A DNA stretch of 32,000 nt from Puniceicoccales bacterium (GTDB lineage: Bacteria; Verrucomicrobiota; Verrucomicrobiia; Opitutales; JAIRLG01): NCBI GenBank assembly GCA_031288595.1, contig JAITRB010000005.1, forward strand, positions 1 through 32,000, given 5' to 3'. The translations under genes were made by a program, and so were the position numbers. The notes beneath the pieces were generated by a model, which did no database searches, had not been told where the DNA came from, and saw only the letters and a program-made list of their open reading frames with translations. Below are positions 1,826 through 32,000 of this stretch, one piece after another. Each line of letters begins with the position of its first letter. Within the stretch, counting starts at the first letter, position 1.

Positions 1826-3433
1826 ATGAAAGGGAATCTGTTTTGTTGGTCTCTGGCCTTGTCATTGGCTCTGGTAAACGGTTGCCAGCCAAGAAAAAAG
1901 CAGAGCCTGAATGTGCTGAACGTTGGAGGTGGTGCCGACTTATCCGCCTTGGATCCGCAAATAGTTGATGGGAAGATCGAGTCGTATGTTATAGAAGCCC
2001 TCTTCGAGGGTCTGGTGACGCAGGATCCTAAAACTCTGGAAATTCGCCCGGGTATGGCCTCTCATTGGGAATGTTCGGCAGATGGCTTGGAGTATTCCTT
2101 TAGCTTGAGAGAGGGGCTGCGCTGGTCCAACGGAGATCCTTTTACGGCGGAAGATTTTGTGTTTTCACTGAAACGAGCTTTGTCTCCGAATCTTGGATCT
2201 CCATGGACTCCGTTTTTTTTCACAATCCGCAATGCGGAGGCTTATTACAAGGGCCAAGTGAGCGATTTTCGAGAAGTCGGCATGCGGGTGGTGGACGCAC
2301 AGCATTTGAAGATTAGGCTGGAACGCCCCGTTGCCTATTTCCTCGAATTGGTAGCCCATTCCGCCTGGTTTCCGGTCCACAAGAAGACGATTGAGAAATT
2401 CGGATCGATCGAGAAGCGGGATACGCGCTGGACGAGGCCGGAGAATATGGTCTGCAATGGCCCGTTTGTGTTGAGTAGCTGGGAGAGTGGCCGCTTCTCT
2501 TCGGTGAAGAAAAATCCTTATTATTGGGATAAAGAGTCCGTTGCCCTCGATGAAATCCGCTTCCATCCCGTTTCCGATACGGCGACGGAGGAGCGGATGT
2601 ACGCTGCTGGCGAACTGGATATCACCTACCGCGTCCATGTGAGCAAAATCTCTCACTATAAGGAGACCGGAGAACTGCATTTGACTCCTCAACTGGGGTG
2701 CTTGTGGGTGGGATTTCATTGCGAACGGCCTCCGGGGAACGATGTAAAAGTGCGCCGAGCCTTGGGCCTGGCCATCAATCGAGAAGAGATCGGCAGAATC
2801 CGCGGATTTGGAAAGGGTCTGGAATCCTTCGGTGTCGTTCCTCCTGGAATGAACCATTACGAACAACAGGCACAGCTCTTCCAGGAAGACATTGCGGAGG
2901 CCAGAAGGCTTTTGGCCGAAGCGGGTTATCCGAACGGGAAAGGATTTCCGAAGGTAGAGCTGCTCTACTATGCCTCCGATGAAAATCGCCAGATATTCGA
3001 AGCGGTGCAGGCCATGTGGAAGCGGAATCTAGGCATTCAGGTCGATTTGGTGGCTCAGGAGTGGAAGGTCTATATTTCTCTCCTACAACAGGGCGATTTT
3101 ACCATTGCCCGCCATCGCTGGTATGGTGATTACAATGATCCGACGACGATGTTGAGCATCTTTAGAAAAGATGATCCCTGTAATTACCTGCGCTGGTCCC
3201 ATCCGGAGTTTGAAGCGGTGATGCTCCGGGCTCAAGAGCTCAAGAATGAGGCGGAGCGAATTAAGTGTCTGCAGGAGGCGGAACGCATTTTTGTGCGCGA
3301 AATGCCAGGGGCTCCCGTCTATTGGGAGGCATCGGCTCACCTGGTTTCCCACCGGGTTAAGGGTTGGTACCCGAATGTCCAGGATACGCATCCCTGGAAA
3401 TACATCTCGAAGTTGCCGGCTGAAGCGAAATAG
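1826..3433 (+). CDS. ABC transporter substrate-binding lipoprotein, family 5 (paralog of 30..1646)
   Basis: 535-aa ORF. Lipobox LVNGC. Colinear with the upstream ORF over its full length, with many identical blocks (LRWSNGDP, ERMYAAG, EARRLLAEAGYP, RVKGWYPNV). Confidence 0.85.
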   Translation: MKGNLFCWSLALSLALVNGCQPRKKQSLNVLNVGGGADLSALDPQIVDGKIESYVIEALFEGLVTQDPKTLEIRPGMASHWECSADGLEYSFSLREGLRWSNGDPFTAEDFVFSLKRALSPNLGSPWTPFFFTIRNAEAYYKGQVSDFREVGMRVVDAQHLKIRLERPVAYFLELVAHSAWFPVHKKTIEKFGSIEKRDTRWTRPENMVCNGPFVLSSWESGRFSSVKKNPYYWDKESVALDEIRFHPVSDTATEERMYAAGELDITYRVHVSKISHYKETGELHLTPQLGCLWVGFHCERPPGNDVKVRRALGLAINREEIGRIRGFGKGLESFGVVPPGMNHYEQQAQLFQEDIAEARRLLAEAGYPNGKGFPKVELLYYASDENRQIFEAVQAMWKRNLGIQVDLVAQEWKVYISLLQQGDFTIARHRWYGDYNDPTTMLSIFRKDDPCNYLRWSHPEFEAVMLRAQELKNEAERIKCLQEAERIFVREMPGAPVYWEASAHLVSHRVKGWYPNVQDTHPWKYISKLPAEAK

Positions 3434-3977: not shown

Positions 3978-5891
3978 ATGGGGTGTATCAAGCTTGGCAG
4001 ACTTAAGTATCCTGTTTTAGCCCTGTTGGGGATATTTTTCATTTTCCACTGGACTGTTCGGGCAAATGCTGAATCAGATGCGTTTCCTCTTCTGGGTAAG
4101 CGCAGCATTCCTTGGCCGGGGGGAAAGTACCACCATTTTTCCAAGAACCAGGACTTGGCGGAATTGCTGAATGATTTCTGCTCCACGCAGGGGATCAGCG
4201 TCATCGTCAGCCCGACGATCAAGGAAACGGTCAATGGGCGCTTCAACGACATCGCACCGGAACAGTTCTGGCAGGATATGGTCAATGCCTATAGCCTGAT
4301 CTGGTTCTTCGACGGCAGTATTCTCTATGTTTACGAGAATAAGCAAATCCAGACCTATGTCTGGTCGATGACGGTCGACGAGATGAACACGCTCTGCCGC
4401 GTCATCGATGAGCTGGGCATTGCCAGCTCGCATCTCTCGATACGTCCCCTGGAACGGGCGGGTATTTTAGTCATCAGTGGGCCACCTCGGCTCATCGCCG
4501 TCGTTGGAGAGTTGTCCCAGAAGATCGTCATCGAGCGCATCGATGAGGTGAGCGATGTGAAGGTTTTCCCCTTAAAATACGCCTGGGCCTATAATATGTC
4601 GATCACCTCCAAGGATGGGAATATCATGATCCCGGGTGTGGCGACGATGCTCCAGCAGCTCCTGGTCTCCAAGCAACAGGGCGGTGAGGGAACTGCGGTG
4701 CCGGTTTTCAATCTCAGCAGCGCCGATAAGACGAAGGCACAGCCGCACAAGGAACTCATCGAGGGACGGGTATCGGGTATGAAACCATCCTCCTCCGCCA
4801 ATGATAGGACTGCAAGCCATGCGGCGGAAAGCACAGGTGGGCAAAATATTCACGTCGAGGATACCCTGATCAGTTTCGATGCCCGCCTGAATGCCGTAAT
4901 CGTCAAGGGGAAAAAGCAGAACATGCCCTTTTTCGAGCGGGTTATCCAAGAACTGGATGTGCCCTGCAAGGTTATCCGCATCGACGTGGCCATTGTGGAT
5001 ATCGACCAAAAGGCCGCTCAGGAATTCGGAACGGATCTTTTAGAAATTTACGACAGACCCAAAAGGCGTATTTTCTCCTTTTCGCCCAAGGGAAAGTTTC
5101 AAGACGCTGGCAATCTTTCTTCCAATCTAAGGCTTCCGCTCAACAGTATCTTTAGGAAATTTAATGTCGAGACCTACCTGCAGGCTCTCGAGGAAAGCGG
5201 AAATGCCCAGACCTTGGCGAGGCCCTCGGTCCTGACAATCGACAACATCGGAGCGACCATCGACCGTTCGAATACCTTTTACGTAAAAGTTTCCGGAACG
5301 AAAACCGAGGGACTCTATGACGTGAGCGCTTCCACAAAGCTTCGGGTGGTGCCGCACATCATTCCCGGCGAGTTCAATGAGGTCGGCCAAGCCAAGATCA
5401 AGCTCTTCGTCGAAGTGGCCGATGGTTCGGTGAGTCAGAAAACTGATATCAATGCCGGAACGCCGACGACCGACAGCAACATGATCAATACACAGGCGGT
5501 TCTGTATGAGGAACAGAGCCTCGTGATCGGCGGTTATTTCCACGAGATCCACAGCACCGCCGAGGTAGGCCTTCCCATCCTCAGCCATATTCCGGTACTG
5601 GGCCATCTGTTCAAATTTCAGGAGAGAGGCAAGGAGGTTCGAGAACGGATCTACGTCATCACCCCGAGGATCGTGGACATCGACGGCGATCCGGATGCCG
5701 ATACGCGGCGCTTTTTCCAGAAAGGCAATCTGCGCGGGGCGGCAACCCTATCATCGAAGGCCTTTGGTCTGAGCGAAGAGGCGAGCTTGCCGGAAAAGGA
5801 ATGGCTCTTCACACCGAAGGAGAAGAGCGCTGCACCCAGCGCCGACGCAGCACGACGCCCTCCGAAAAGACGGCGGGTGAGGCATGGATGA
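3978..5891 (+). CDS. sctC: Type III secretion system outer-membrane secretin SctC (YscC/InvG/CdsC family)
   Basis: 637-aa ORF with N-terminal signal. The N0-domain signature LIWFFDGSILYVYENKQI resembles the YscC block LIWYFDGQAIYIYD. C-terminal secretin domain (ARPSVLTIDN, LRVVPHI, QSLVIGGY, IPVLGHLF). Basic C-terminal tail. Confidence 0.85.
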   Translation: MGCIKLGRLKYPVLALLGIFFIFHWTVRANAESDAFPLLGKRSIPWPGGKYHHFSKNQDLAELLNDFCSTQGISVIVSPTIKETVNGRFNDIAPEQFWQDMVNAYSLIWFFDGSILYVYENKQIQTYVWSMTVDEMNTLCRVIDELGIASSHLSIRPLERAGILVISGPPRLIAVVGELSQKIVIERIDEVSDVKVFPLKYAWAYNMSITSKDGNIMIPGVATMLQQLLVSKQQGGEGTAVPVFNLSSADKTKAQPHKELIEGRVSGMKPSSSANDRTASHAAESTGGQNIHVEDTLISFDARLNAVIVKGKKQNMPFFERVIQELDVPCKVIRIDVAIVDIDQKAAQEFGTDLLEIYDRPKRRIFSFSPKGKFQDAGNLSSNLRLPLNSIFRKFNVETYLQALEESGNAQTLARPSVLTIDNIGATIDRSNTFYVKVSGTKTEGLYDVSASTKLRVVPHIIPGEFNEVGQAKIKLFVEVADGSVSQKTDINAGTPTTDSNMINTQAVLYEEQSLVIGGYFHEIHSTAEVGLPILSHIPVLGHLFKFQERGKEVRERIYVITPRIVDIDGDPDADTRRFFQKGNLRGAATLSSKAFGLSEEASLPEKEWLFTPKEKSAAPSADAARRPPKRRRVRHG

Positions 5892-7878: not shown

Positions 7879-7974
7879 GTGGCTGTCTTTGCCCCCTGAG
7901 AAATTTTTCTGGAAAATTTCTCAGGGGACAGCCTGCTCTGCAGGCGGATTCCTTTGGAATCCAAAGACAGCCAC
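7879..7974 (-). repeat. Four-way-junction intergenic element, copy A (family 1)
   Basis: Closing stem 7879-7891 GTGGCTGTCTTTG pairs with 7962-7974 CAAAGACAGCCAC. Long hairpin 7893-7907/7913-7927 (15 bp). GC hairpin 7931-7936/7940-7945 (GCCTGC/GCAGGC). Hairpin 7947-7952/7956-7961 (GATTCC TTT GGAATC). Reverse orientation relative to copies C-E. Confidence 0.85.
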
Positions 7975-13500: not shown

Positions 13501-13599
13501 CTGTGGCTGTCTTTGCAACAGGAAAAAATTTCCCCAGAAATTTTTCCTGTTGTGGCCCGCGCCGCGGGCGATTCCTTTGGAACCCAAAGACAGCCACAG
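13501..13599 (-). repeat. Four-way-junction intergenic element, copy B (family 1)
   Basis: Closing stem 13501-13515 CTGTGGCTGTCTTTG pairs with 13585-13599 CAAAGACAGCCACAG (15 bp). Long hairpin 13516-13531/13538-13552 (one bulged A). GC hairpin 13555-13560/13564-13569 (GCCCGC/GCGGGC). Hairpin 13570-13575/13579-13584 (GATTCC TTT GGAACC; A-C on the plus strand, G-U on the minus strand). Confidence 0.85.
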
Positions 13600-17632: not shown

Positions 17633-17730
17633 GTCGGCTGGCTTTTGATGCCAAAGGCATCGGGCCCGCGGAGCGGGCCCACAGTGGAGGCCAGGACTCT
17701 GTCCTGGCCTCCACTGAAAAGCCAGCCGAC
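17633..17730 (+). repeat. Four-way-junction intergenic element, copy F (diverged closing stem)
   Basis: Closing stem 17633-17646 GTCGGCTGGCTTTT pairs with 17717-17730 AAAAGCCAGCCGAC (14 bp). Hairpin 17647-17652/17656-17661 (GATGCC AAA GGCATC). GC hairpin 17662-17669/17673-17680 (GGGCCCGC GGA GCGGGCCC). Long hairpin 17682-17697/17701-17716 (16 bp). Confidence 0.8.
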
Positions 17731-18720: not shown

Positions 18721-19530
18721 ATGAAACGGCGATTTTATCTTCTTCTGGCAGGAGGGATTCCCTGGCCATTGGGGCTCCTGGGGACTGCAGATGAACCGAC
18801 ATCGGTGGCTGCGGTTCAGGTTCAAGAGAACACAACATCTGCAGGAGCTCTCATAGGCATGCCGAGTACTTCTGCGGTGGCGCGCACTCCGCCGGTGGCG
18901 GAACCAAAGCTGGACGAGGCAGCGGGACTGCAGGATGAAACCATCATCGAGACCTGGATGAGGGTTTTGATCCAAAATGCGCTGCGCTGTCTGCGGGAGA
19001 ATCCCTGGAAGACCCTTTCTCGCCTGAAGTCGGCTCGGGGCCTGCTGCTGCTGGGGCCGGAAAAATTGGGAAGTCTGCTGGGGGTGCACGCCGGGGCGGC
19101 CCTCGGGTTTTACCGGAGAAGCGATGGACACTGGGGCCTTCCGGCCATCTACCAGGTCGAATCGAAATCGCCCATCAAATGGGGTGAGGTGAGCTCGCTG
19201 ATTCTGCCCATCGAAGACGAGAAGACCCAGGTAAGCCTGCTGTTGCCCCAATGGCCCTGCGCGGTGGCGGCGAAAGCGCCGCCAAACTTCGGCCCCTCTT
19301 CGGAACTTGCCCAGGAGCTGGAGAAGGAGGAGAGTCCTTCGCTCTGGATTTTTCCGGAATCGAGGGATTTTCCCAAAAAGCTGGAGCTGATCTTCCACTT
19401 CAACCGCGAGATCAATGAGGAATTTTATGGGAAGGAAGGAATCCGGGCCGTGGATATTTTTTTTGACGATACCGCTGAGCCAGCGCACCTGAGAGAATGG
19501 TGGAATTTTTTGAAAAAGGTCTTAAACTAG
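18721..19530 (+). CDS. Hypothetical secreted protein
   Basis: The ORF track starts at 18679. The ATG at 18721 (MKRRFYLLLAGG...) has a GGAG 4-7 nt upstream and gives a signal-peptide-like N-terminus. No confident family; there is a weak SYLF/DUF500-like stretch. Confidence 0.5.
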   Translation: MKRRFYLLLAGGIPWPLGLLGTADEPTSVAAVQVQENTTSAGALIGMPSTSAVARTPPVAEPKLDEAAGLQDETIIETWMRVLIQNALRCLRENPWKTLSRLKSARGLLLLGPEKLGSLLGVHAGAALGFYRRSDGHWGLPAIYQVESKSPIKWGEVSSLILPIEDEKTQVSLLLPQWPCAVAAKAPPNFGPSSELAQELEKEESPSLWIFPESRDFPKKLELIFHFNREINEEFYGKEGIRAVDIFFDDTAEPAHLREWWNFLKKVLN

Positions 19531-20141
19531 AGGCCGTGAAGGGGGAATTCAGGCGGGCCCAGGGTTTTTTGCTCATCGAGGTCGTCGTGGCCCTGGCGGT
19601 TTTTGCCGTTTCAGCCGCCATCATCGTCCAGAGCTTCGCCAATGGGCTTGTGGCTAAGTACCAGCGGGAGAACTCACCCGACGCGGGGGACCGGTTGCTG
19701 TTTCTGGTGGATCAGGTCTTTGAGCAGATCAGAGGGGGAAGGTCCAGCAAAGAGGACTTGGCCAACGGTGGGGAGATGCATTTCCCCGATGGGAGCTGTT
19801 GGCGCTGGAAGATGCTGTGCCAGCCAACGAATGTGCTGAATCTCTTCCAGATTTCCCTGGAGTTGATTCTCCCGAAGGGACAGGAGGAGTACCAGTTCTA
19901 CCGTTGGGTGCCTGAGTGGAAGGATTGGGACCAGGAGACAAAGGCCAAGGAGTATTTTCAGAAAAATAAGGGAAAGGGCTTGGGGAAACCCAAGAAGTCT
20001 CGGAAGGGAAAAGCTCAAGTCTTGGGGTTTGTCTCTTCGCTGTCTTTGGATTCCGGAGGAATCGACCCGCGCAGCGGGCCCCAGGATAAAAACAAAAGGG
20101 AGTTTTGTTTTTATCCTGCAAAGACAGCGAAGTACTGCTGA
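19497..20141 (+). CDS. Prepilin-type N-terminal cleavage/methylation domain protein (T2SS/T4P pseudopilin-like)
   Basis: Class III signal QG|FLLIEVVVALAVFAVSAAII. An in-frame GTG at 19536 would give a canonical short leader (MKGEFRRAQG). The last 35 or so codons (from 20035) are encoded by repeat copy C. Confidence 0.6.
   Translation: MVEFFEKGLKLEAVKGEFRRAQGFLLIEVVVALAVFAVSAAIIVQSFANGLVAKYQRENSPDAGDRLLFLVDQVFEQIRGGRSSKEDLANGGEMHFPDGSCWRWKMLCQPTNVLNLFQISLELILPKGQEEYQFYRWVPEWKDWDQETKAKEYFQKNKGKGLGKPKKSRKGKAQVLGFVSSLSLDSGGIDPRSGPQDKNKREFCFYPAKTAKYC
20035..20132 (+). repeat. Four-way-junction intergenic element, copy C (family 1)
   Basis: Closing stem 20035-20048 CTTCGCTGTCTTTG pairs with 20119-20132 CAAAGACAGCGAAG (14 bp). 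Hairpin 20049-20054/20058-20063 (GATTCC GGA GGAATC). GC hairpin 20066-20070/20074-20078 (CCCGC GCA GCGGG). Perfect 16-bp hairpin 20082-20097/20103-20118. Confidence 0.88.
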
Positions 20142-20308: not shown

Positions 20309-20404
20309 CCGCTGTCTTTGGATTCCAAAGGAATCGGTCCGCATAGCGGTCCCCAGGGGTAAAGGGAAGGCTTTGCCTTCCATTTACTCCTGCAAAGACA
20401 GCGG
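20309..20404 (+). repeat. Four-way-junction intergenic element, copy D (family 1)
   Basis: Closing stem 20309-20320 pairs with 20393-20404 (CCGCTGTCTTTG/CAAAGACAGCGG). Hairpin 20321-20326/20330-20335 (GATTCC AAA GGAATC). Hairpin 20336-20342/20346-20352 (one T-T). Long hairpin 20354-20371/20375-20392 (one G-T, one G-A). Confidence 0.85.
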
Positions 20405-21534: not shown

Positions 21535-22712
21535 GGGCATTGCGGCTTCGGGACTTCCCTCTGGCTCTGGATGGGTCCCGTCCCGACTTCCTGATCATCG
21601 CGGGAGAGGCCTCTGGAGATGAGCATGCGGCCCGTATGGTAGAGGGTTTATTCTGCGAGAATCCCCAAGTGTCGGTCTATGCCTTCGGCGGGAAAAATCT
21701 CCAGGCGGCCGGTGCCCATCTGCTCTATGATCTGACGCAGCACGCGGTCATAGGCCTGTGTGAGGTTTTGAGGAATCTCGGCCTGTTCCGGCAATTGCTC
21801 GCGGCGGTCATCGACTGGGTGGCCATCCACAGGCCGCGTACGGTCTGCCTGGTGGATTACCCGGGCTTCAACCTGCGATTGGCCAAACGCCTTTTCCAAA
21901 GGGGCTTGAGCCGGAAGGGTGGCGGCGAGGTCGCGCTCTACTACTACATCAGCCCGCAGATCTGGGCCTGGAAGGCAAAGCGCCGCTTTGGGATGGCCCG
22001 CTGGCTCGACCATCTGGGGCTTATCTTTCCCTTTGAAAAGGATTTTTTCGCAGACATCCCGCTGCGGGTCTCCTTTGTCGGCCATCCCTTGTTGTGCGCC
22101 AAAGCTTCTTTCCTATCGTACGCTCCCCAGGGGGTACTGCTCCTGCTACCCGGAAGCCGCGTGGCGACCGTCCGCCGGCTCTTCCCGCTGATGCTCGAAA
22201 CTTTTCGGCGACTGCAGCCCCAATTCCCACACCTCTTAGCGGCGGTGCCGTATGCCGACGAGGGGGTGTTGGAAGAATTGCGGGGGATATTTGCAGGGTA
22301 CGAAGACCTTCGGTCCTACCTGCGATTTGTTTCCGTTTCAGGCCCAGATCTTCCCTGTGCGGCGAGCCTGATGGTCTCCGGCACCATGTCCCTCAGCTGC
22401 GCTCTGGCCGGTATCCCTGGGGTCATCACCCATAAAATCCATCCCCTGAGCTACTTCCTGGCCAGGCACTGGGTCAAGATTCCCTACATCGGCATGGCCA
22501 ATATTCTGCTGAAGCGGAAGTCGCTGCCGGAGTATATCCAGAGCGAGGCCGAGCCTTCTGCCCTGTGCGAGGAAGTCTCGCAGTGCCTGCGGGATCCCAG
22601 GAGAATCGAACAGGCGCAACAGGATGCCGAAGCCCTGAGGGCCATCCTTGGAGCACAGCCGGATCTGAAGGTGGCCGAGTGGCTCCTCACTTCGCTGGAG
22701 GAGAAATTTTAG
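21531..22712 (+). CDS. lpxB: Lipid-A-disaccharide synthase
   Basis: The LpxB-like sequence begins at MRALRL...FLIIAGEASGDEHAARMV. The ATG at 21531 overlaps the ychF stop (ATGA, 21531-21534). The track ORF start at 21330 lies inside ychF and was rejected. Confidence 0.88.
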   Translation: MRALRLRDFPLALDGSRPDFLIIAGEASGDEHAARMVEGLFCENPQVSVYAFGGKNLQAAGAHLLYDLTQHAVIGLCEVLRNLGLFRQLLAAVIDWVAIHRPRTVCLVDYPGFNLRLAKRLFQRGLSRKGGGEVALYYYISPQIWAWKAKRRFGMARWLDHLGLIFPFEKDFFADIPLRVSFVGHPLLCAKASFLSYAPQGVLLLLPGSRVATVRRLFPLMLETFRRLQPQFPHLLAAVPYADEGVLEELRGIFAGYEDLRSYLRFVSVSGPDLPCAASLMVSGTMSLSCALAGIPGVITHKIHPLSYFLARHWVKIPYIGMANILLKRKSLPEYIQSEAEPSALCEEVSQCLRDPRRIEQAQQDAEALRAILGAQPDLKVAEWLLTSLEEKF

Positions 22713-22782
22713 GGGAAAGCCTAGGTCTTACACGGGAAAGGCCGATTTGGGGAATTTCGGGCCCGGATATTTGGGCGGAGCT

Positions 22783-22881
22783 GGCGCTGTCTTTGGATTC
22801 CGGAGGAATCAGCCCGCGCAGCGGGCACCAGAGCGGCAAATGAAAAGGCCTTTTCATCTGCCGCTCTGCAAAGACAGCGCC
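22783..22881 (+). repeat. Four-way-junction intergenic element, copy E (family 1)
   Basis: Closing stem 22783-22795 GGCGCTGTCTTTG pairs with 22869-22881 CAAAGACAGCGCC (13 bp). Hairpin 22796-22801/22805-22810 (GATTCC GGA GGAATC). GC hairpin 22812-22817/22821-22826 (GCCCGC GCA GCGGGC). Long hairpin 22829-22846/22851-22868 (one A-C). Overlaps the last 9 or so codons of mutY. Confidence 0.88.
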
Positions 22882-23942
22882 GGAGCCGATGGCCCCCCTT
22901 CTTCCCGCACGATTTCCCGGAGTTTGGGCAGCCAGCGGCGATGGGGCCCTGAGAGGGGGATCTGTTTCAGTTCCGCAGCCGAGAACCAGCGGCCATCGGA
23001 GGGTATCGGGGTCCTCTCATCGACTTTTAAAATGTGAAACTTTTCCGTGAACCGTGTGAGGCCGATGCTTCGCCTGCCCGTAAAGATGGGCGGGAGGAGT
23101 TTTGGGGAAAACGGAATTGGAATTTCCGGGAATTCCCAGATGAGGGCCGTAGGCTTGCTCGGAATGCCCATGGGCGATAAGAGGAGCCGGTCCCGGTGGA
23201 AAAAGAGGCCGCGGGCCTTGCTGGCTTTTCTGTAGCTGGGGATCTTGAATCGCGGGATGCTTTCGGCCGTCGCGTGGAGATGGGCCCGACAATGAGAACG
23301 TAGGGGGCAGAGCAGGCACTGTGGGTGCTGTGGCAGACAGATCAGCGCGCCGAGCTCCATGAGCCCCTCATTGTAGAGGGCATGGCGTGGGGAATCGAGG
23401 CAGCGCTCGGCCAAGGGACGTAGGTAACTCAGGGCCTGCGCCTGGCCGTCGAAGGCACGTTGGATATTTCCGAAGCGCAGCAGGACGCGGAGAATATTTC
23501 CATCCATGACGGCCACTGGTGTATCTTGAGAAAAGCTGGCGATGGCCGCCGCCGTGTAGCGGCCGATGCCGGGGAGTTTTTCCCAATCGCCGACCGTTTG
23601 GGGCAGATGCCCTTGCCGTCGAATGATTTGGGCGATTTCGTGGAGTGCCGAGGCACGCCGATAGTAGCCCAGTCCTTCCCACAGGCCTAGAACCTCCACC
23701 TCATCAGCTTGGGCTAGGCTTTCCAGGTCAGGGAAGCGCCGGATCCATCGCTCGAAATAAGGCACGACCGTTTTGACCTGGGTCTGCTGGAGCATCATCT
23801 CCGAAATGAGTGTGTGGTAGACGGAGCGTTTCTGGCGCCAGGGCAGAGAGCGAGCCTGGTGGGCATAGAAATCGATCACCGCTTGCCTGAGAAAGAGGAT
23901 TGCCTTTCGGGATAGGTGGAGTGACGGCATGGGATGAGCCAT
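22854..23942 (-). CDS. mutY: A/G-specific adenine DNA glycosylase
   Basis: 362 aa. Motifs SEMMLQQTQV, GLGYYRRA, MDGNILRV, and Fe-S loop C..QHPQCLLCPLRSHC. C-terminal NUDIX-like domain. Confidence 0.9.
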   Translation of the reverse strand: MAHPMPSLHLSRKAILFLRQAVIDFYAHQARSLPWRQKRSVYHTLISEMMLQQTQVKTVVPYFERWIRRFPDLESLAQADEVEVLGLWEGLGYYRRASALHEIAQIIRRQGHLPQTVGDWEKLPGIGRYTAAAIASFSQDTPVAVMDGNILRVLLRFGNIQRAFDGQAQALSYLRPLAERCLDSPRHALYNEGLMELGALICLPQHPQCLLCPLRSHCRAHLHATAESIPRFKIPSYRKASKARGLFFHRDRLLLSPMGIPSKPTALIWEFPEIPIPFSPKLLPPIFTGRRSIGLTRFTEKFHILKVDERTPIPSDGRWFSAAELKQIPLSGPHRRWLPKLREIVREEGGPSAPALSLQSGR

Positions 23943-24002
23943 GCCGCGAAAAACTTTAGGTTTGGCAATACGGAGGAAATTTTTATAAAGGGAGGCTGGC
24001 TT

Positions 24003-24494
24003 ATGGATCGCAGGGAACAGGTGAATTTGTTACTAAAGGGGGTCTCGAAGCGCCTGGGGCTTGGGCTGAGATTCGACGGAGAGGCTAGTACCTGCCGGTT
24101 TCGGGATAACGGCTCGCAGCGGCATTATATTTTGGAAGTACTGGAGAATCACGACATGCTCTACATCTACTGCCCACTGATGGAAGTCCCCTGCGAGGGG
24201 TGTGAGACCTTCTTTCAATTCCTCCTGAGCCTCAACCTGCATGGACTCCTGACGCAGCATGCCTTCGTCGGCCTCGATGAGGTGAAAAATCTCATCGTCA
24301 TGTCCTACTCCTTTCCCATCGAGCTTCTGGATGAATCGCTGCTCTTCAACCTGATCGTCCACTTCACCTCCTCGGCTGAAAAGGTCTACCAGATGCTGGA
24401 CAATTTTCTCAAGTCGAGCTCCTTTGCGAAGGGCATCGGGGCGAGCCGCAGGAATGACCTGGCTAAGACGAGCCGGCTCAGGGTTCGGGTTTAA
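24003..24494 (+). CDS. Type III secretion class-I chaperone, CesT family
   Basis: Start placed at MDRREQVNLLLKG, with GGGAGG 8-13 nt upstream. 163 aa, acidic. Matches the CesT pattern (LGL.LRFD..., YILEV, MLYIYCPL, FLLSLNLHG, LIVMSYSFP, helical C-terminus). Confidence 0.65.
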   Translation: MDRREQVNLLLKGVSKRLGLGLRFDGEASTCRFRDNGSQRHYILEVLENHDMLYIYCPLMEVPCEGCETFFQFLLSLNLHGLLTQHAFVGLDEVKNLIVMSYSFPIELLDESLLFNLIVHFTSSAEKVYQMLDNFLKSSSFAKGIGASRRNDLAKTSRLRVRV

Positions 24495-24501
24495 CAAAAA
24501 G

Positions 24502-25176
24502 ATGTCGGAATTCCCCTATGCCTTGGGCTCAGCTTCGACGGGGTCGGTGCAGGAGACGATTGCCTCTTCCAGTGAGCCGAAAGGACTGGAAAATCCGGTC
24601 AGTTCAGTGGCGGACTTGCTGCGATCCCATGGCGAGCTGGTGGGCTCTCCGCTGGTGGAAGTGGCGGAAGCGAGAATGGATTTGAGTGTCGTTGAGGAGA
24701 GTGAAGAGGAATCGACCCGCAGCATCGGCCAGATGGAGAGGGAGGGGATTTTTCTGGATACCGACGGTGATGGGATTCCGGACTACCGCGACCTGAGTGG
24801 CAGCGAGTCGCGCTTCGCGCAGGAGGCGGATAAGGGGATGAGCAATGCGATGGAAATGCTGAGGGCGATGATGGGGAATGTTCTCGGGTTTAATTTCCGA
24901 CCCGATATCCTGAAGTCGGAGGAGGCCGTGAGTGAAATTTCAAAGGCACAGGGCGGAAACCTGCAGGCGACACTGGCGGCTACCCATAGAAATCGCGTCA
25001 CAATGGACTTCGATGTCGGAGTCTCGTCCTGGCGTCGGATGGCCCAGAAGCGGAGGGACCTCTTCCGCCGGACGAGGGAACTTAGGGGGCTTAGCCATAT
25101 GGAGGGTTTTTATAAAAATATGCCCCAAGTGGCGGATCGCTCGCGGATAGATGCTGATGTGTCGAGGCCGCGCTGA
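24502..25176 (+). CDS. Hypothetical protein; candidate T3SS substrate
   Basis: 224 aa from the ATG at 24502, 7 nt after the chaperone's stop. No signal peptide. Ser/Thr-rich, disordered-looking N-terminus. Contains DTDGDGIPDYRD (TSP type-3-like Ca-binding motif). No recognisable enzymatic family. Confidence 0.45.
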   Translation: MSEFPYALGSASTGSVQETIASSSEPKGLENPVSSVADLLRSHGELVGSPLVEVAEARMDLSVVEESEEESTRSIGQMEREGIFLDTDGDGIPDYRDLSGSESRFAQEADKGMSNAMEMLRAMMGNVLGFNFRPDILKSEEAVSEISKAQGGNLQATLAATHRNRVTMDFDVGVSSWRRMAQKRRDLFRRTRELRGLSHMEGFYKNMPQVADRSRIDADVSRPR

Positions 25177-25209
25177 GGATTTTGAGAGGAATCGTTTGTG
25201 ATGCTTTGT

Positions 25210-25309
25210 GGGCGATGGCCCGTCGGAGAACGGCCTTTGGCCGTTCTCCGACTCCGGCTGTTTTCATGCAATGAAAACAGCCATCTGGCTTTGCCAGGGG
25301 CCATCGCCC
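25210..25309. repeat. Four-way-junction intergenic element, copy G (family 2)
   Basis: Closing stem 25210-25221 GGGCGATGGCCC pairs with 25298-25309 GGGCCATCGCCC. Hairpins 25222-25235/25239-25252 (14 bp), 25256-25267/25271-25282 (12 bp) and 25285-25289/25293-25297 (CTGGC TTT GCCAG). If the short hairpin is taken as equivalent to the first hairpin of family 1, the element is minus-oriented (tentative). Confidence 0.75.
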
Positions 25310-25447
25310 CACAGCACGCCCCATAAGCTCTCGTCTCCCGCCGCCAACGCCTTTCCCTCTGTCTAGATTTCCCATCTCCAAACTCGGATGTTCCTCTGAC
25401 TATTTGCTTGTAAGGATCCCCAACGCTTCCAGAAATGCGAGGACTGA

Positions 25448-26016
25448 GTGGAGATCGATCGGGAGAAAATTGAGAGGAGCGTACGGCTCCTGCTGGCAGG
25501 AATCGGCGAGAATCCGAAACGCGAGGGCCTGTTCGGAACACCGGGACGAATCGCTGCGTTTTTCGAGGAGTTCTTGGGCCTAAGGGATACATTTGAAAGT
25601 GTCCGGAAGCTGTTTCAGGTCGAGTCAGATGGCCGCTATGTGCTCTTGGCATTCCCTTCTATTCGCTCTGTGAACATCACTTCCTGCCCTTTTACGGCAA
25701 GGCATCGATGGCCTATGAAGTGTCCCAGAAGCGCGTTCTAGGCCTGAGAAAATTCATGCGCTTAAGACTCTGTACCGGCCACCTACAGCTGCAGGAGCAC
25801 CTGGCGGAGGAACTGGCGAATGCCCTTGTGAAGGCGACGGACGGCGGGAGTGTCCTGATACTCCTGGAGGCCGAGCATCTCTGCACCCGCATGCGGTGGC
25901 TTAGGTCGGAAGGAGCCTGCTACGTAACCCGAGCCCTGAGGGGGAATTTCGCCGGCGACACCGCCCTGCTCTCGGATATGCTGGCGATGATCCGTCTGGG
26001 AAGGACAGGACTCTGA
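25448..26016 (+). pseudogene. folE: GTP cyclohydrolase I (FolE), interrupted by a frameshift
   Basis: The N-terminal part (GTG at 25448; GENPKREGL.GTPGRIA) is in one frame. The catalytic block GIPFYSLCEHHFLPFYGKA and the rest (to 26016) are in the -1 frame, which is open from 25597. The frames must switch near 25640-25650. Confidence 0.7.
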
Positions 26017-26024
26017 GCAAATCG

Positions 26025-26816
26025 ATGGAAGAGGCGATTCTCGTCGGCGTTCTGAACCTCACACCGGATTCCTTCTCGGATGGCGGTCTTTACTGTACGC
26101 TGGACCGTGCCCTGGAACACGCGCGCCAGATGCGGGCGGAAGGCGCTGCCTACATCGATGTGGGGGGGGAATCGACCCGCCCTGGCTTTACGGCCATAGG
26201 CGTTCGGGAAGAATGGGAGCGCATCGCTCCGGTCCTCGAGGAATTGCGGAGGGAGCATATTCCGATCTCGGTCGATACGAGAAAACGAGAGCTGATCCCG
26301 CTGGCTTTGGATGCCGGAGCTTCGATGATCAACTTCCAGGGCAGTGTTCGCGAGGCCCTGGAGCTGACGAGGTCATCGGAATTTCTTCGGAGCGAGGGGC
26401 ATTGGGTCCTGATGTACAACGGCCGTACGGACGAAGGGAACGAAAAGCTCTCACCCGAGCAGCGGAGAGTCCTGTTTTTCGAGCGCTGTGCCGAGCACCT
26501 GGCTTCGAGAAACATCCCCGCCGAGCGCGTCATCTTCGACCTCGGCATCGGCTTCGGGACCTCAGACGGAGAAGCTGAGTATCTTCTCCGCCAACAGGAG
26601 CGTTTCATCCGGCGCTGGGAACATCCCTGGATGCTGGCGATTTCCAAAAAATCCTTCCTGAAGCGCTGGTGTTCAGGCGCGGGAGCGGAGCAACGGCTGG
26701 AGCTTAGTCTGGCGCTGGCACTCATGAGCTACCGGCAGGGCTGCCGCTACTTCCGCGTCCACGATGTCCGGCCGCATCGGGATTGCCTCCGAGCCATACG
26801 TGAAATTTATGGATAG
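26025..26816 (+). CDS. folP: Dihydropteroate synthase
   Basis: 263 aa. Motifs GVLNLTPDSFSDGG, IDVGGESTRPG, SVDT, DLGIGFG and RVHDV. Confidence 0.9.
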   Translation: MEEAILVGVLNLTPDSFSDGGLYCTLDRALEHARQMRAEGAAYIDVGGESTRPGFTAIGVREEWERIAPVLEELRREHIPISVDTRKRELIPLALDAGASMINFQGSVREALELTRSSEFLRSEGHWVLMYNGRTDEGNEKLSPEQRRVLFFERCAEHLASRNIPAERVIFDLGIGFGTSDGEAEYLLRQQERFIRRWEHPWMLAISKKSFLKRWCSGAGAEQRLELSLALALMSYRQGCRYFRVHDVRPHRDCLRAIREIYG

Positions 26817-27201
26817 TTTATTTCTGCGAGGTCTTTCCTATGAGGCGCGACACGGCGTCGAGGATTTCGAGCATCAGGTCTCCCAGACGTTTGGGCTTTC
26901 CGTCGAACTTCGCGGTGATTTCGGTCGGGCCATCGCGACGGATGAGCTTGCAGAATCCGTAGACTACGATGCGGTGGAGCGCTGCCTGGCTCGGGAAATC
27001 CATGCGAAGAGCTTCCATCTCATCGAGGCCCTGGCATCCCATCTGGTAGCGGAGCTTTTTCGAAGCTTCCCCTCCGTGGTGGAAATTCGCCTGGAGCTGA
27101 GCAAGCGGCCGCTGCTGTGGGAGGGAAAATCCTATCACTCGATCGGGTTTTCCATGGAAAGGCGACGGCATGACGCGTGTTTATCTCTCACTCGGAACTA
27201 A
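26809..27201 (+). CDS. folB: Dihydroneopterin aldolase
   Basis: Start placed at MDSLFLRGLSYEARHGV..E, overlapping the folP end by 8 nt. Shows the DHNA pattern (Q.F.L.VEL, VDY, LIEALA, LSKRP). Confidence 0.75.
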   Translation: MDSLFLRGLSYEARHGVEDFEHQVSQTFGLSVELRGDFGRAIATDELAESVDYDAVERCLAREIHAKSFHLIEALASHLVAELFRSFPSVVEIRLELSKRPLLWEGKSYHSIGFSMERRRHDACLSLTRN

Positions 27202-28198
27202 TCTGGGCGATCGGGAAACCCAGCTCCGCAAAGCCGTAGGACTTCTGCAGGAGAGCTTTGGACTCTTCGCCCTTTCCGGTCTCTGGGAGACGGAGCCCTG
27301 GGGGCGTGTCCGGCAGCCGCCTTTCCTGAACCTCGCCCTGGGCCTCGAAGTTTCCGGGTCCATCGAGGCATTTTTCTCCCACATTCAGGCCATCGAGCAG
27401 CGGCTCGGCAAGAGGAGAGATGGCTTCTGGGCTGCCCGCAACATCGACATCGATCTCCTCTTCTGGGGCCACGAGCATTACCGTTCTCCGCATCTGCTGG
27501 TTCCGCATCCCTACTGGCATCAGCGGGCATTTGTCCTAAAACCTCTTCTGGAAATCGCCCCGCTACTCAATCCTGGAGGGAAAAATCTTCCTTTCTGGCT
27601 GCGGCGCTGCGAAGCCGAAGATCCATCAGTTGCTGCGCGCCGTGTCGGCCAACTCGAAGGCATTTCTCTCCCTCCACCTACTCCCTTGAGCTACGAGGAA
27701 TTGGAGGCACAGGGAGTCATCCTTAAGGGAATCGCGGGGGTGGATGCCCGGCAGGGCCTGGCACGCGAAGGAAGGATTCCCTGGGAGCTTCCCGAAGACC
27801 GTTCCTTTTTTCGCGAGCAGACCCGCGACGGCATCCTATGCCTGGGACGCAAAACGATGGAATCCCTGCCGCATGCCTTCGCTCCGGAGGAGCGCGAACT
27901 GTGGATTCTGAGCCGGAATGCGTCGTCCTGCGACCGTTTTCCCGCTGCCCTGGTCTTTCACCATCCGAGAGAACTGCGAGATGTGCGGACGCCGAAGAAC
28001 ATTTGGATCTGCGGTGGTGGGGAGGTTTATGCGCAATTCCTTCCTCTCTGCTCGGAGATCTATCTCACGCAACTGGCGGCGGATTACAACTGCGACCAGT
28101 TCCTCGACCCTTCCTGGCGGAAATTGTTCTCCGAAATGCGCTGTCTCAAACGCAATCCCCATGACGCCGTTTGGTACTACCGACGTCTTGGAGAATAG
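27170..28198 (+). CDS. Bifunctional HPPK (FolK) / dihydrofolate reductase-like (FolA) fusion protein
   Basis: 342 aa. The N-terminal 150 or so aa are HPPK (YLSLGTNLGDR, ETEPWG, NIDIDLL, VPHP). The C-terminal 165 or so aa are DHFR-like (IPWELPEDRSFFREQT, LGRKTMESLP, WILSRN, IWICGGGEVY, LTQL...CDQF). Confidence 0.8.
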   Translation: MTRVYLSLGTNLGDRETQLRKAVGLLQESFGLFALSGLWETEPWGRVRQPPFLNLALGLEVSGSIEAFFSHIQAIEQRLGKRRDGFWAARNIDIDLLFWGHEHYRSPHLLVPHPYWHQRAFVLKPLLEIAPLLNPGGKNLPFWLRRCEAEDPSVAARRVGQLEGISLPPPTPLSYEELEAQGVILKGIAGVDARQGLAREGRIPWELPEDRSFFREQTRDGILCLGRKTMESLPHAFAPEERELWILSRNASSCDRFPAALVFHHPRELRDVRTPKNIWICGGGEVYAQFLPLCSEIYLTQLAADYNCDQFLDPSWRKLFSEMRCLKRNPHDAVWYYRRLGE

Positions 28199-28708
28199 AC
28201 GCTTGAGGGGAGTTTTTTCTTGCCTCATGTATACAAGCACCGTAATATAAAAGGAGAGGAGGTATATACTGCCTCAATTCTGAAGGGAAGGGTTATGGTG
28301 GGAAAAATTCATCTGGCGGGGCTTAGTGCTCTGTGGGGCACTCTGTCTGTAGGGTATGCCGAGCGTTGGCCGAGAAATGGGATGACCTAGGAAGAGCTTC
28401 GCATTGCCGTGTACTGGAAGAACAAAACAGCTTTGTCGCCTCATGCCGAAGCTCGACCAGCACCCGCTTGTGCGATGTCGAGGACAGGTGGGGCCGGCGA
28501 AGGTGTTGACTTGAGAGGATACCCTGGTTTCCCTCATCTTGAGATGGATGGATCTGTTTGGCTCTGTAATCCTGATTTGGCCAAAACGCCTGAGCTGGAA
28601 GCTCCGGAAGACCCATTTGGGTTCCGTTCCTGAAAGGGGCCGTATTTCCCTCCTGAGGAGGGGGAATGGGTCCGCTGCGAAGAGCTTCTGGTCGCAGAGG
28701 GAAATTTT

Positions 28709-29686
28709 ATGCCAAACGTATTGGTGACCGGAGGTTGTGGCTATATCGGCTCGGGTCTTGTTCATCGGCTGAAACGCCTGAGCTATGGTGTGTCGGTGCT
28801 GGATTCTTTGGTTCATGGGGATAGGGGAGCGATTCCGGAAGACGTCCCGCTCTATGTCGGGGATTACGGCCACCTCGCTCTGATGGAACAGATTCTATCG
28901 GAGCAGGTGGTGGACTGCGTTCTGCACTGCGGGGCCTGGACGGACGTGCGCGAATCGCTGGCCTGGCCGATGATGTACTTCGTCAACAACCTGGCCGGAA
29001 CGATGTTTTTGCTGCAGGCCATGGTTCACAAGCACGTGAAGCAAATCATCTACCTATCGACGGCGTCGGTCTATGGAGAGGTGGAGAGTGGTTTAGCGGA
29101 TGAATCGCAGGTCCCGAATCCCATCAATCCCGACGGGATGACGCATCTGGGCGTCGAGCAGCTTTTGGCAGCTCTGGCGGAGTCCGAGCGCTGGAGCGTC
29201 GTCATCCTCCGTCCTTCCAATGTCGTAGGACGGGCCTCGTCGGGGGAAAGTATTTCTCTGAAGAAAGATAACCTGTTCTCCATTCTGGGTGAGGTCGTGA
29301 ACGGCGAACGGGAATCCTGCGAGGTTTTCGGTAACGACCGACCCACGTTCGACGGCACGGCGGTTCGGGATTACGTCCATGTGGAGGATGTGATCCATGC
29401 CTTCATCTCCGCCCTGTCGTCCATGCCGGCGATGGGGACGAGGGGAAGCTATAACCTCGCCTCCGGTCGGGGATATTCGGTCCGAGAGGTCATTCGGAGC
29501 TTCGAAAGGATTTTCGGCAAGAGGATTCCCGTTGTGGAGTCAGACGCTCATCCTGGGGAAATCGCCCGTTCCGTTCTGGACCCGAGGAAGGCACAGCGGG
29601 AACTTCACTGGGAGCGGCGGTTCGATGATCTGAAAACTCTGGTACGGGATACCTGTCCGGGGAGAGAGGGAGAGCTTTTCGGCTGA
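28709..29686 (+). CDS. NAD-dependent epimerase/dehydratase family protein (GalE-like extended SDR) with non-canonical active site
   Basis: 325 aa. Rossmann motif VLVTGGCGYIGSGLV, and STASVYGE. The expected PYGxSK (YxxxK) reads PDGMTH. Confidence 0.8.
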   Translation: MPNVLVTGGCGYIGSGLVHRLKRLSYGVSVLDSLVHGDRGAIPEDVPLYVGDYGHLALMEQILSEQVVDCVLHCGAWTDVRESLAWPMMYFVNNLAGTMFLLQAMVHKHVKQIIYLSTASVYGEVESGLADESQVPNPINPDGMTHLGVEQLLAALAESERWSVVILRPSNVVGRASSGESISLKKDNLFSILGEVVNGERESCEVFGNDRPTFDGTAVRDYVHVEDVIHAFISALSSMPAMGTRGSYNLASGRGYSVREVIRSFERIFGKRIPVVESDAHPGEIARSVLDPRKAQRELHWERRFDDLKTLVRDTCPGREGELFG

Positions 29687-29749
29687 TGGAGGGAAGGTTC
29701 TTTTGAGGGGTATTCGGAGAGGTGGTCTTTGGGGCTGGTTTCAAAATCT

Positions 29750-29857
29750 GGCGCGATGGCCCGTCGCTAAACGGACAAAAGCCGTTTAGCGACAGGGCTC
29801 TCCTCCGCGCGGAGCGCGGAGGAGAGCCCCTTTGCTCCGCAAAGGGGCCCTCGCGCC
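29750..29857. repeat. Four-way-junction intergenic element, copy H (family 2)
   Basis: Closing stem 29750-29762 GGCGCGATGGCCC pairs with 29845-29857 GGGCCCTCGCGCC (one T-C mismatch). Hairpins 29763-29774/29782-29793 (12 bp), 29795-29810/29814-29829 (16 bp) and 29830-29835/29839-29844 (CTTTGC TCC GCAAAG). Shares the 5' block GCGATGGCCCGTCG..AACGG with copy G. Confidence 0.75.
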
Positions 29858-29890
29858 AAAAGATTCCAGCAGTTGGAAATCACCGAAGCA

Positions 29891-32000
<2,110 letters not shown>

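Follow-up and report, generated by a model that had tools for sequence, protein, structure and literature searches.

The DNA analysed here, referred to as the window, comprises 32,000 nucleotides of a Puniceicoccales genome (positions 1 to 32,000 of contig JAITRB010000005.1, assembly GCA_031288595.1) and carries two intergenic palindromes, designated G and H. G follows an open reading frame (ORF) for a candidate effector protein that ends at position 25176. H lies beside glgB, which has its stop codon at 29891 and whose ORF is interrupted by the end of the window. A sequence-only reading had proposed that the two elements form a second sequence family built, like a first family in the window, on the plan of one closing stem enclosing three hairpins. 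We find this plan in both families, and G and H genuinely belong to a group of palindromic intergenic repeats that is abundant in uncultured Puniceicoccales and apparently has not been described before. The blocks they had been said to share, GCGATGGCCCGTCG...AACGG on the 5ʹ side and GGGGCC(A/C)TCGC on the 3ʹ side, are present where they had been placed. Because the palindrome extends 2 to 4 base pairs past the shared block, the full elements span positions 25210-25309 (G) and 29749-29858 (H). G begins 33 to 35 nucleotides past the end of its neighbouring ORF and H lies 32 to 36 nucleotides from the glgB stop codon, which agrees well with the distance of 34 nucleotides proposed for both. However, this distance is not conserved, since the copy of G at the matching locus of a related genome (L130) sits 115 nucleotides after the stop codon.

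When either strand of G or H is folded as RNA, the minimum-free-energy structure consists of exactly one closing stem and three near-perfect hairpins, which together form a four-way junction. The folding energies of the two strands are -83.3 and -82.5 kcal/mol for G, and -91.2 and -93.0 kcal/mol for H. These correspond to z-scores of -10.9 to -14.0, and none of 200 dinucleotide shuffles was equally stable. The same four-way fold was obtained with DNA parameters. The parts of the two elements, with the hairpins as they appear in the minimum-free-energy fold and with no strand assigned, are listed below.

25210..25221: closing stem of G, 5ʹ arm, GG + GCGATGGCCC, paired with 25298-25309 on both strands
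25222..25252: long hairpin of G, GTCGGAGAACGGCC-TTT-GGCCGTTCTCCGAC, 14 base pairs with a 3-nucleotide loop
25256..25282: middle hairpin of G, GGCTGTTTTCAT-GCA-ATGAAAACAGCC, 12 base pairs
25285..25297: short hairpin of G, CTGGC-TTT-GCCAG
25298..25309: closing stem of G, 3ʹ arm, GGGCCATCGC + CC
29749..29762: closing stem of H, 5ʹ arm, TGGC + GCGATGGCCC, with one T-C mismatch against 29845-29858
29763..29793: long hairpin of H, GTCGCTAAACGG-ACAAAAG-CCGTTTAGCGAC
29795..29829: middle hairpin of H, GGGCTCTCCTCCGCGC-GGA-GCGCGGAGGAGAGCCC, 16 base pairs
29830..29844: short hairpin of H, CTTTGC-TCC-GCAAAG, the commonest form in the family
29845..29858: closing stem of H, 3ʹ arm, GGGCCCTCGC + GCCA

The covariation that had been noticed in the hairpin next to the 5ʹ arm is readily seen, with GTCG-GAG-AACGG/CCGTT-CTC-CGAC in G and GTCG-CTA-AACGG/CCGTT-TAG-CGAC in H, such that three positions are altered on both arms. 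Both versions of the short hairpin had also been read correctly. The middle hairpins differ in sequence and length and are perfectly paired in each element, as had been described. Their description as unrelated does not hold, because copies at matching loci elsewhere differ through compensated changes rather than through replacement, and the two hairpins are thus related by descent.

Additional representatives of this second family (F2) were sought in a collection of genomes, one per species, by scanning for the two closing arms separated by a free gap and then folding each match to recognize true members. Most matches were chance occurrences in GC-rich genomes, and folding singled out at least ten loci. 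Among the matches listed, all ten folding loci come from three metagenome-assembled genomes (MAGs), those of Puniceicoccales bacterium Pcl387_bin136, Pcl387_bin38 and Ct408_bin121, and with looser arm matching these loci contain at least 12 full copies. Loci that match those of G and H in related genomes supplied three more full copies (L127, L128 and L130), and two cut copies occur at contig ends. G and H are therefore not a lone pair, with at least 15 further full copies and two cut copies in related Puniceicoccales contigs. A scan of metagenomes for the 5ʹ arm plus the short hairpin gave one partial match, which is probably degenerate, and searches for these elements in collections of viral contigs, plasmids and phages produced chance matches or none.

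The first 14 copies (two from the window and 12 from the ten MAG loci) were used to build an alignment and a covariance model. When applied to 113 kb of sequence, the model recovered exactly its 14 input copies plus one copy truncated by a contig start; it found no others and matched no copies of the first family. In the model-based alignment, 95.6% of pair cells hold standard pairs, compared with 73.6% when partners are shuffled and 38-44% when partners are slid. Moreover, 23 of the 34 pairs change on both sides, in a total of 105 cells, and none of 500 shuffles reached any of these measures. The covariation suspected from two copies is thus well beyond that of the shuffled and slid controls. 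Its distribution among the helices is uneven. Within the family, the closing-stem core GCGATGGCCC does not vary and neither does part of the short hairpin, whereas all pairs of the other two helices vary, including all 11 modelled pairs of the long hairpin on both sides. The remainder of the short hairpin alternates between the CTGGC type and CTTTGC-NNN-GCAAAG through a compensated exchange of T-A and G-C (pair 17-50).

Related genomes provide a view of the same elements at the same sites. The GlgB protein and the CesT-type chaperone encoded in the window have best relatives that are 88-91% identical and derive from Puniceicoccales MAGs, which places the window in this order. Contigs encoding close relatives of these two proteins gave loci of matching gene order (L127 to L132). 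Counterparts of H reside directly after glgB in L127 (GlgB 88% identical) and L128 (76%). The long hairpin of H differs from theirs by compensated changes (GTAGCTAAACGGCC... and GGTCGCTCGGCGGC...). The middle hairpin is strongly diverged in both and still perfectly paired, and its loop is inverted, being TCC on the glgB-sense strand in the window and GAA in L127 and L128. Even the closing stem carries a compensated change in L128 (CGCCATGGCCC/GGGCCATGGCG). The full counterpart of G occurs in L130, and L132 ends with a truncated one. The stem of its long hairpin is identical in L130, where the loop is TCC. Its middle hairpin spans 27 nucleotides in the window and 42 nucleotides in the L130 element (5728-5842), with perfect pairing in both, and the matching of this 15-nucleotide length change on the opposite arm suggests that one arm was re-copied from the other. 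In a further case, L073 and L089 have one family-2 copy in common, which in both lies downstream of one shared gene; the gene has 75% DNA identity between the two genomes, and the closing stem and short hairpin are identical.

Pair changes were counted for five shared loci, whose copies gave seven pairwise comparisons. A total of 245 pairs are unchanged, 31 are changed on both sides and still paired, and three are changed on both sides and broken. One-sided changes number 22, of which eight kept the pair and 14 broke it, and are thus fewer than the 31 compensated double changes. Of the positions left unpaired, approximately 48% are different in the same-locus copies compared. These compensated copies indicate that the elements are old at their sites, and that their arms turn over yet stay paired.

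Persistence is accompanied by turnover of whole elements. In L129 (GlgB 74% identical), an element of a sister family, F1b, takes the place of family 2 after glgB, and L127 has an extra F1b element 3ʹ of glgB with no equivalent in the window, L128 or L129. Near the family-1 (F1) element upstream of ychF, the second element is of family 1 in the window and F1b-like in L130, and L131 has two elements of F1b type. The family-1 element between lpxB and mutY is found in the window and in L130 and is absent from L131, where the two genes overlap. Elements have therefore been gained, lost or swapped for a member of another family at the glgB, ychF and lpxB-mutY loci. Relatedness to G also extends beyond its own locus. 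A related copy at a different locus in another genome (L093) retains GGCTGTTTT of the middle hairpin. An element between ymdB and ksgA in another genome is 85% identical to G, with the ‘variable’ hairpins included, and its flanks have no homology to those of G, which indicates that whole elements are copied to new places.

The two families of the window belong to a larger collection. A structure-only scan of 113 kb based on RNAfold identified approximately 35 real elements, which sort into four groups (F1, F1b, F2 and F3). This descriptor was used in place of an earlier and stricter one, based on lists of hairpins, that had detected only 11 elements. Family 1 has the closing stem GCTGTCTTTG, and its sister F1b has GCCGCCTTTG and shares the hairpin GGCCCGC-NNN-GCGGGCC with it. 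Family 3 elements are short (68-79 nucleotides), with the closing stem CCCGGGAT and three short hairpins with GAA, GCA or GAA loops (GCGAAGC type). Families 1 and 2 occur together within the same 8-kb stretches in three MAGs, as the sequence-only reading had suggested should be examined, and members of all four groups were found together in the same 8-kb loci. Family 1 is represented in the window by six copies, which are listed here with examples of family 3, again with no strand assigned.

7879..7974: family 1, same plan with hairpin order inverted, downstream of tRNA-Gly
13501..13599: family 1, hairpin order inverted, flanked by tRNA-Val and a gene in convergent orientation
17633..17730: family 1 variant with a compensated closing stem, GCTGGCTTTT/AAAAGCCAGC
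20035..20132: family 1, read through by ORF 19497-20141
20309..20404: family 1, upstream of ychF, with a same-locus copy in L130
22783..22881: family 1, between lpxB and mutY, with a same-locus copy in L130 and none in L131
L047 2102-2169, L047 3067-3145 and L093 4454-4530: family 3, whose elements are often beside family-1 or family-2 copies

Two of these family-1 elements overlap the ends of ORFs. The mutY ORF ends within the element at 22783-22881 (positions 22854-22881), such that the last residues of the protein, PALSLQSGR, are encoded by the element; the corresponding residues in L130 are PALSLQNGP. Likewise, the last ~35 codons of ORF 19497-20141, which encodes a prepilin-type N-terminal methylation motif, are formed by the element at 20035-20132.

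Elements of all families have four helices and a length of 70-125 nucleotides, with a closing stem of 10-15 base pairs, hairpins that mostly have 3-nucleotide loops, and junction linkers of zero to three unpaired bases. A density scan that demanded a closing stem of at least 7 base pairs, exactly three branches and at least 80% of bases paired identified 48 elements in the 147 kb formed by the window and related contigs, compared with two in 822 kb of control DNA that was unrelated and for the most part GC-rich. The former amounts to approximately one element per 3 kb. Furthermore, 8 of 22 MAG contig ends fall inside or beside an element (including the starts of L034, L047, L076, L093 and L127, and the end of L132), compared with a background of 8.6%, as is expected of high-copy repeats. 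The loops also have a marked composition. GNA or its complement TNC accounts for about half of all hairpin loops, compared with ~12.5% of possible 3-nucleotide loops, and most of these are closed by C-G, whereas AAA or TTT makes up a further sixth. The motif c-GNA-g is an unusually stable DNA mini-hairpin. GNA loops were considered as a possible mark of one functional strand, and this was rejected given that one strand can carry both GNA and TNC and that loops are inverted from copy to copy.

The sequence-only reading had left open whether this structure is one of RNA or of DNA. If it were RNA, the elements could be cis-acting modules at gene ends (3ʹ-untranslated-region stabilizers, terminators or operon insulators) that are selected on the transcript, with the families as interchangeable versions of one module. 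Such a function is consistent with the location of most copies 8-80 nucleotides after a stop codon, and with the fact that the 3ʹ end of glgB bears an element in all four related genomes (family 2 in three, F1b in one). It would also accommodate the retention of pairing through compensated changes in same-locus copies, and the finding that region 22000-32000 is poorer in canonical terminator-like sites than its shuffles (7 versus 10.6). However, many gene ends in the window carry no element, and the elements are not confined to gene ends. Some are placed between convergent or co-directional genes, and others occupy divergent promoter regions upstream of glgB in L127, L128 and L129. Gene directions were established from GC content by codon position and from Pfam matches, because ORF calling (naive or based on codon usage) was too noisy in MAGs of 46-64% GC. 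The elements occur in either orientation, and the order of hairpins relative to the flanking genes and to transcription is mixed. Selection on RNA would tolerate G-U pairs on the transcribed strand only, yet such pairs make up only ~1-2% of the total and are divided between 16 sense and 17 antisense among 30 elements whose transcribed strand is fixed by flanking genes. Similarly, among 29 non-tied elements the more stable strand is sense in 14 and antisense in 15. Neither the G-U tolerance nor the better fold of the transcribed strand that is generally expected of a selected RNA is therefore seen. An excess of G-U on the strand where the short hairpin comes first (28 versus 13) is weak, derives partly from one G-T inherited in a subfamily, and vanishes when the strands are sorted by transcription. 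A rho-independent terminator is also not evident, since none of 52 elements (in the window plus loci L029-L131) has a T-run on its 3ʹ side and a scan for canonical terminators was empty at G and H.

The runs that do flank the palindromes have the opposite polarity. In 17 of the 52 elements, at least five T residues occur within 12 nucleotides on the 5ʹ side or at least five A residues on the 3ʹ side, the reverse occurs in none, and the background is ~1.6% per flank. The run abuts the palindrome, mostly on one side only and independently of gene direction, and no convincing terminator hairpin precedes it. Examples, with no strand assigned, are as follows.

Flank of window element 7879-7974; L093 4279; L047 6024: T on the 5ʹ side or A on the 3ʹ side

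The equality of the two strands in G-U content and stability, the mixed hairpin order, the divergent sites and the lack of a U-tract together favour a palindrome that matters as DNA, on both strands, over a structure of the transcript, and we consider a cis-acting RNA module an unlikely explanation.

A palindrome that matters as DNA might be maintained by the host. The elements could be cruciform or junction sites bound by a nucleoid, topoisomerase or recombination protein, comparable to the bacterial interspersed mosaic elements (BIMEs) bound by gyrase and IHF, and kept for chromosome organization with spread as a secondary matter. That both strands fold equally well suits such a role, as do the perfect junction, the over-represented GNA and TNC loops, the A and T runs that flank the palindrome, and the conservation of closing stem and short hairpin beyond that of neighbouring genes. 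On the other hand, the protein partner is putative and would need to recognize each of several unrelated cores (F1, F1b, F2 and F3), the extrusion of multi-hairpin palindromes of 100 base pairs in vivo is hypothetical, and elements that are gained, lost or exchanged for another family at one site resemble mobile DNA. We judge host DNA sites to be a rather improbable explanation. Both this and the RNA module nevertheless retain some probability, because constant occupancy of a site and conservation of the core are also predicted by a host function. A cloverleaf of four helices and ~100 nucleotides with strong covariation further brings to mind stand-alone genes for small, tRNA-like RNAs. This is very improbable given that both strands fold equally well, that loop and junction nucleotides are not conserved between same-locus copies, that promoter and terminator signals are lacking, and that one element per 3 kb would be implausibly dense for RNA genes. 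In addition, ARAGORN and Rfam (at gathering thresholds) report only two real tRNAs in the window and nothing at G or H, and Rfam searches at relaxed E-values gave only sub-threshold hairpin matches, the best being to the SucA motif (30.3 bits versus a gathering score of 40).

Folded single-stranded DNA is a known substrate of the recombinases IntI and XerCD. Recombination sites of the integron (attC-like) or Xer type would share with the present elements a conserved structure with variable sequence and a position just after ORFs, and one family-2 copy in L029 lies 47 nucleotides after a tyrosine-recombinase gene. Yet a single such adjacency is expected by chance at this density, both orientations occur, and the aligned copies lack the R/L boxes (R''/L''...L'/R') and the GTTRRRY core of attC sites. 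The flanking genes are housekeeping genes in conserved order (glgB, fol genes, ychF, lpxB and mutY) and are therefore not cassettes, which makes a role as recombination sites highly unlikely. Miniature inverted-repeat transposable elements (MITEs) that depend on a DDE transposase were also considered. The closing stem does provide inverted termini, but no target-site duplication was found, as direct repeats in the flanks were inconsistent and measured zero to two nucleotides in nearly all of 35 elements checked.

We favour, with somewhat better than even confidence, a different form of mobility, in which G and H are copies of a dispersed, non-autonomous palindromic DNA element that belongs to a clade-specific superfamily of the Puniceicoccales, with at least four families on one plan, and that resembles the repetitive extragenic palindromic (REP) elements and the REPINs formed from pairs of them. 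Such elements would spread within the genome as folded single-stranded DNA, acted upon in trans by an enzyme specific for both structure and sequence. The nearest analogy would be a REP-associated tyrosine transposase (RAYT) or another hairpin-processing enzyme of the HUH or tyrosine type. This enzyme probably recognizes the conserved closing stem together with the short hairpin, whereas the variable arms would be constrained only to remain self-complementary. Their pairing could persist because copies unable to fold are neither propagated nor tolerated, because template switching within a strand rewrites one arm from its partner, or for both reasons. Insertion may take place next to T-runs, and any effect on transcripts, such as a block to 3ʹ exonucleases, would be a by-product that does not depend on orientation. 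A more far-reaching proposal, which we regard as possible but doubtful, is that the elements are long-lived intragenomic replicators of a new class, with the four-way-junction fold of single-stranded DNA as the unit that is inherited. A conserved ‘handle’ would be read by an enzyme, the arms would be re-templated from their partners, flip their loops and be swappable, insertion would occur 3ʹ of a T-run without duplication, and families with different handles would compete for the same intergenic sites.

Several observations weigh against mobility as the explanation. No transposase or other candidate enzyme is encoded in ~150 kb of flanking sequence (the window plus loci), including the small ORFs near elements, and no gene for a RAYT, the IS200-like tyrosine transposase that in REPIN-RAYT systems is encoded in single copy and flanked by the repeats, is present there. 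Transposition is deduced rather than seen directly, and presence or absence at a shared site could equally come from deletion. Retention at the same locus with a core more conserved than the neighbouring gene also fits a host function, and the occupancy of one site by different families in several genomes could reflect a need for the structure there as well as a hotspot of insertion. Finally, the T-run is explained by no demonstrated step.

Small structured extragenic repeats are already known, and what is new here is the four-way-junction fold and the coexistence of several cores. A REP element is a single stem-loop of 20-40 nucleotides, one end of which bears the tetranucleotide GTAG or CGTC (PMC3733652). 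This description does not apply to the present elements, which are longer, have four helices and lack GTAG; 7 of the first 14 family-2 copies have a long hairpin with CGTC at its base, and no copy of family 1 or family 3 does. Nevertheless, the elements share with the REPs and BIMEs of proteobacteria a high copy number, an extragenic location, GC-rich palindromes, both orientations, mixed clusters, families specific to a species or clade, and the extension of some copies into gene ends (PMC3733652). They differ from these single hairpins with a tag and short tails in that each is a four-way junction enclosing three hairpins, and no tag is common to them. Like REPINs, they are non-autonomous, must fold, persist vertically over long periods at the same locus in relatives (here at the five shared loci, with 31 compensated double changes), and form sequence populations within a genome (PMC3116915; bioRxiv 10.1101/2021.07.10.451892). 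However, a REPIN consists of two inverted REPs in one long imperfect hairpin, whereas several families with different cores and no GTAG are built here on one architecture. Bacterial MITEs such as Correia, RPE, ERIC and BOX are likewise small, with terminal inverted repeats, intergenic spread and occasional extension of ORFs (PMC3184786, PMC2229807). In addition to lacking target-site duplications, the present elements differ from MITEs in having internal arms that are almost wholly different yet perfectly paired, and same-locus copies that are maintained rather than decaying.

The inverted terminal repeats of parvoviruses, including adeno-associated virus (AAV), are three-way (T-shaped) ends of a linear viral genome and serve as hairpin origins read by HUH endonucleases. 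By analogy, they too have a closing stem around small GC-rich hairpins, 3-nucleotide AAA or TTT loops, two internal orientations (compare flip and flop) and a fold of single-stranded DNA. Unlike them, the present elements are four-way, chromosomal and dispersed, and the window and loci showed no Rep-like gene. Double-hairpin and repetitive hairpin elements of organelles are also mobile multi-hairpin palindromes that are defined by their fold and fill intergenic DNA (PMC2800124, PMC4478555). These reside in eukaryotic organelles, are smaller and have one or two hairpins, rather than a closing stem around three. A full-text literature search for cloverleaf or four-way-junction repeats in bacteria, or for repeats of Verrucomicrobia, returned only general work on REPs and MITEs and the organellar hairpin elements.

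REP, REPIN and MITE repeats are known mainly from proteobacteria and as single hairpins, and a superfamily of four-way junctions would extend small structured repeats to the Planctomycetes-Verrucomicrobia-Chlamydiae (PVC) group and to a new architecture. Its distinctive features are the density of approximately one per 3 kb, the same-locus copies across species with compensated arm evolution, and the coexisting ‘handles’. The points of greatest interest are the architecture itself, the covariation that carries no RNA signature, the polarity of the T-runs and the sharing of sites between families. Because covariation is very strong here and the evidence points to DNA, the elements bear on every claim of RNA structure that is based on covariation, and they offer a natural data set in which to separate selection on pairing from palindrome-templated mutation as its source. 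In practical terms, these repeats fragment MAG assemblies and alter the 3ʹ ends of genes such as mutY and the prepilin-like ORF.

The genes near the elements yielded some additional observations. Upstream of G, a type III secretion chaperone of the CesT family precedes a conserved 224-amino-acid protein that has no Pfam match (window 23934-25176, L130 4440-5612, L132 188-1385), and the window ORF at 24424-25176, which reads as 250 amino acids from a TTG codon, probably starts later. The combination of a secretion chaperone of this type and a candidate effector is noteworthy for a Verrucomicrobium. Downstream of G, folE (GTP cyclohydrolase I, 25448-26016) is divided into two overlapping ORFs (25448-25741 and 25708-26016), which reflects a frameshift or a sequencing error. 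In L130, which has the same gene order, folE is missing between the counterpart of G and folP, and the gene appears to be decaying in this lineage. At the opposite end of the window, positions 30-1646 and 1826-3433 hold tandem paralogous genes for proteins of ~535 amino acids, with stretches of ~71% DNA identity, which probably encode the peptide-binding proteins of an ABC transporter.

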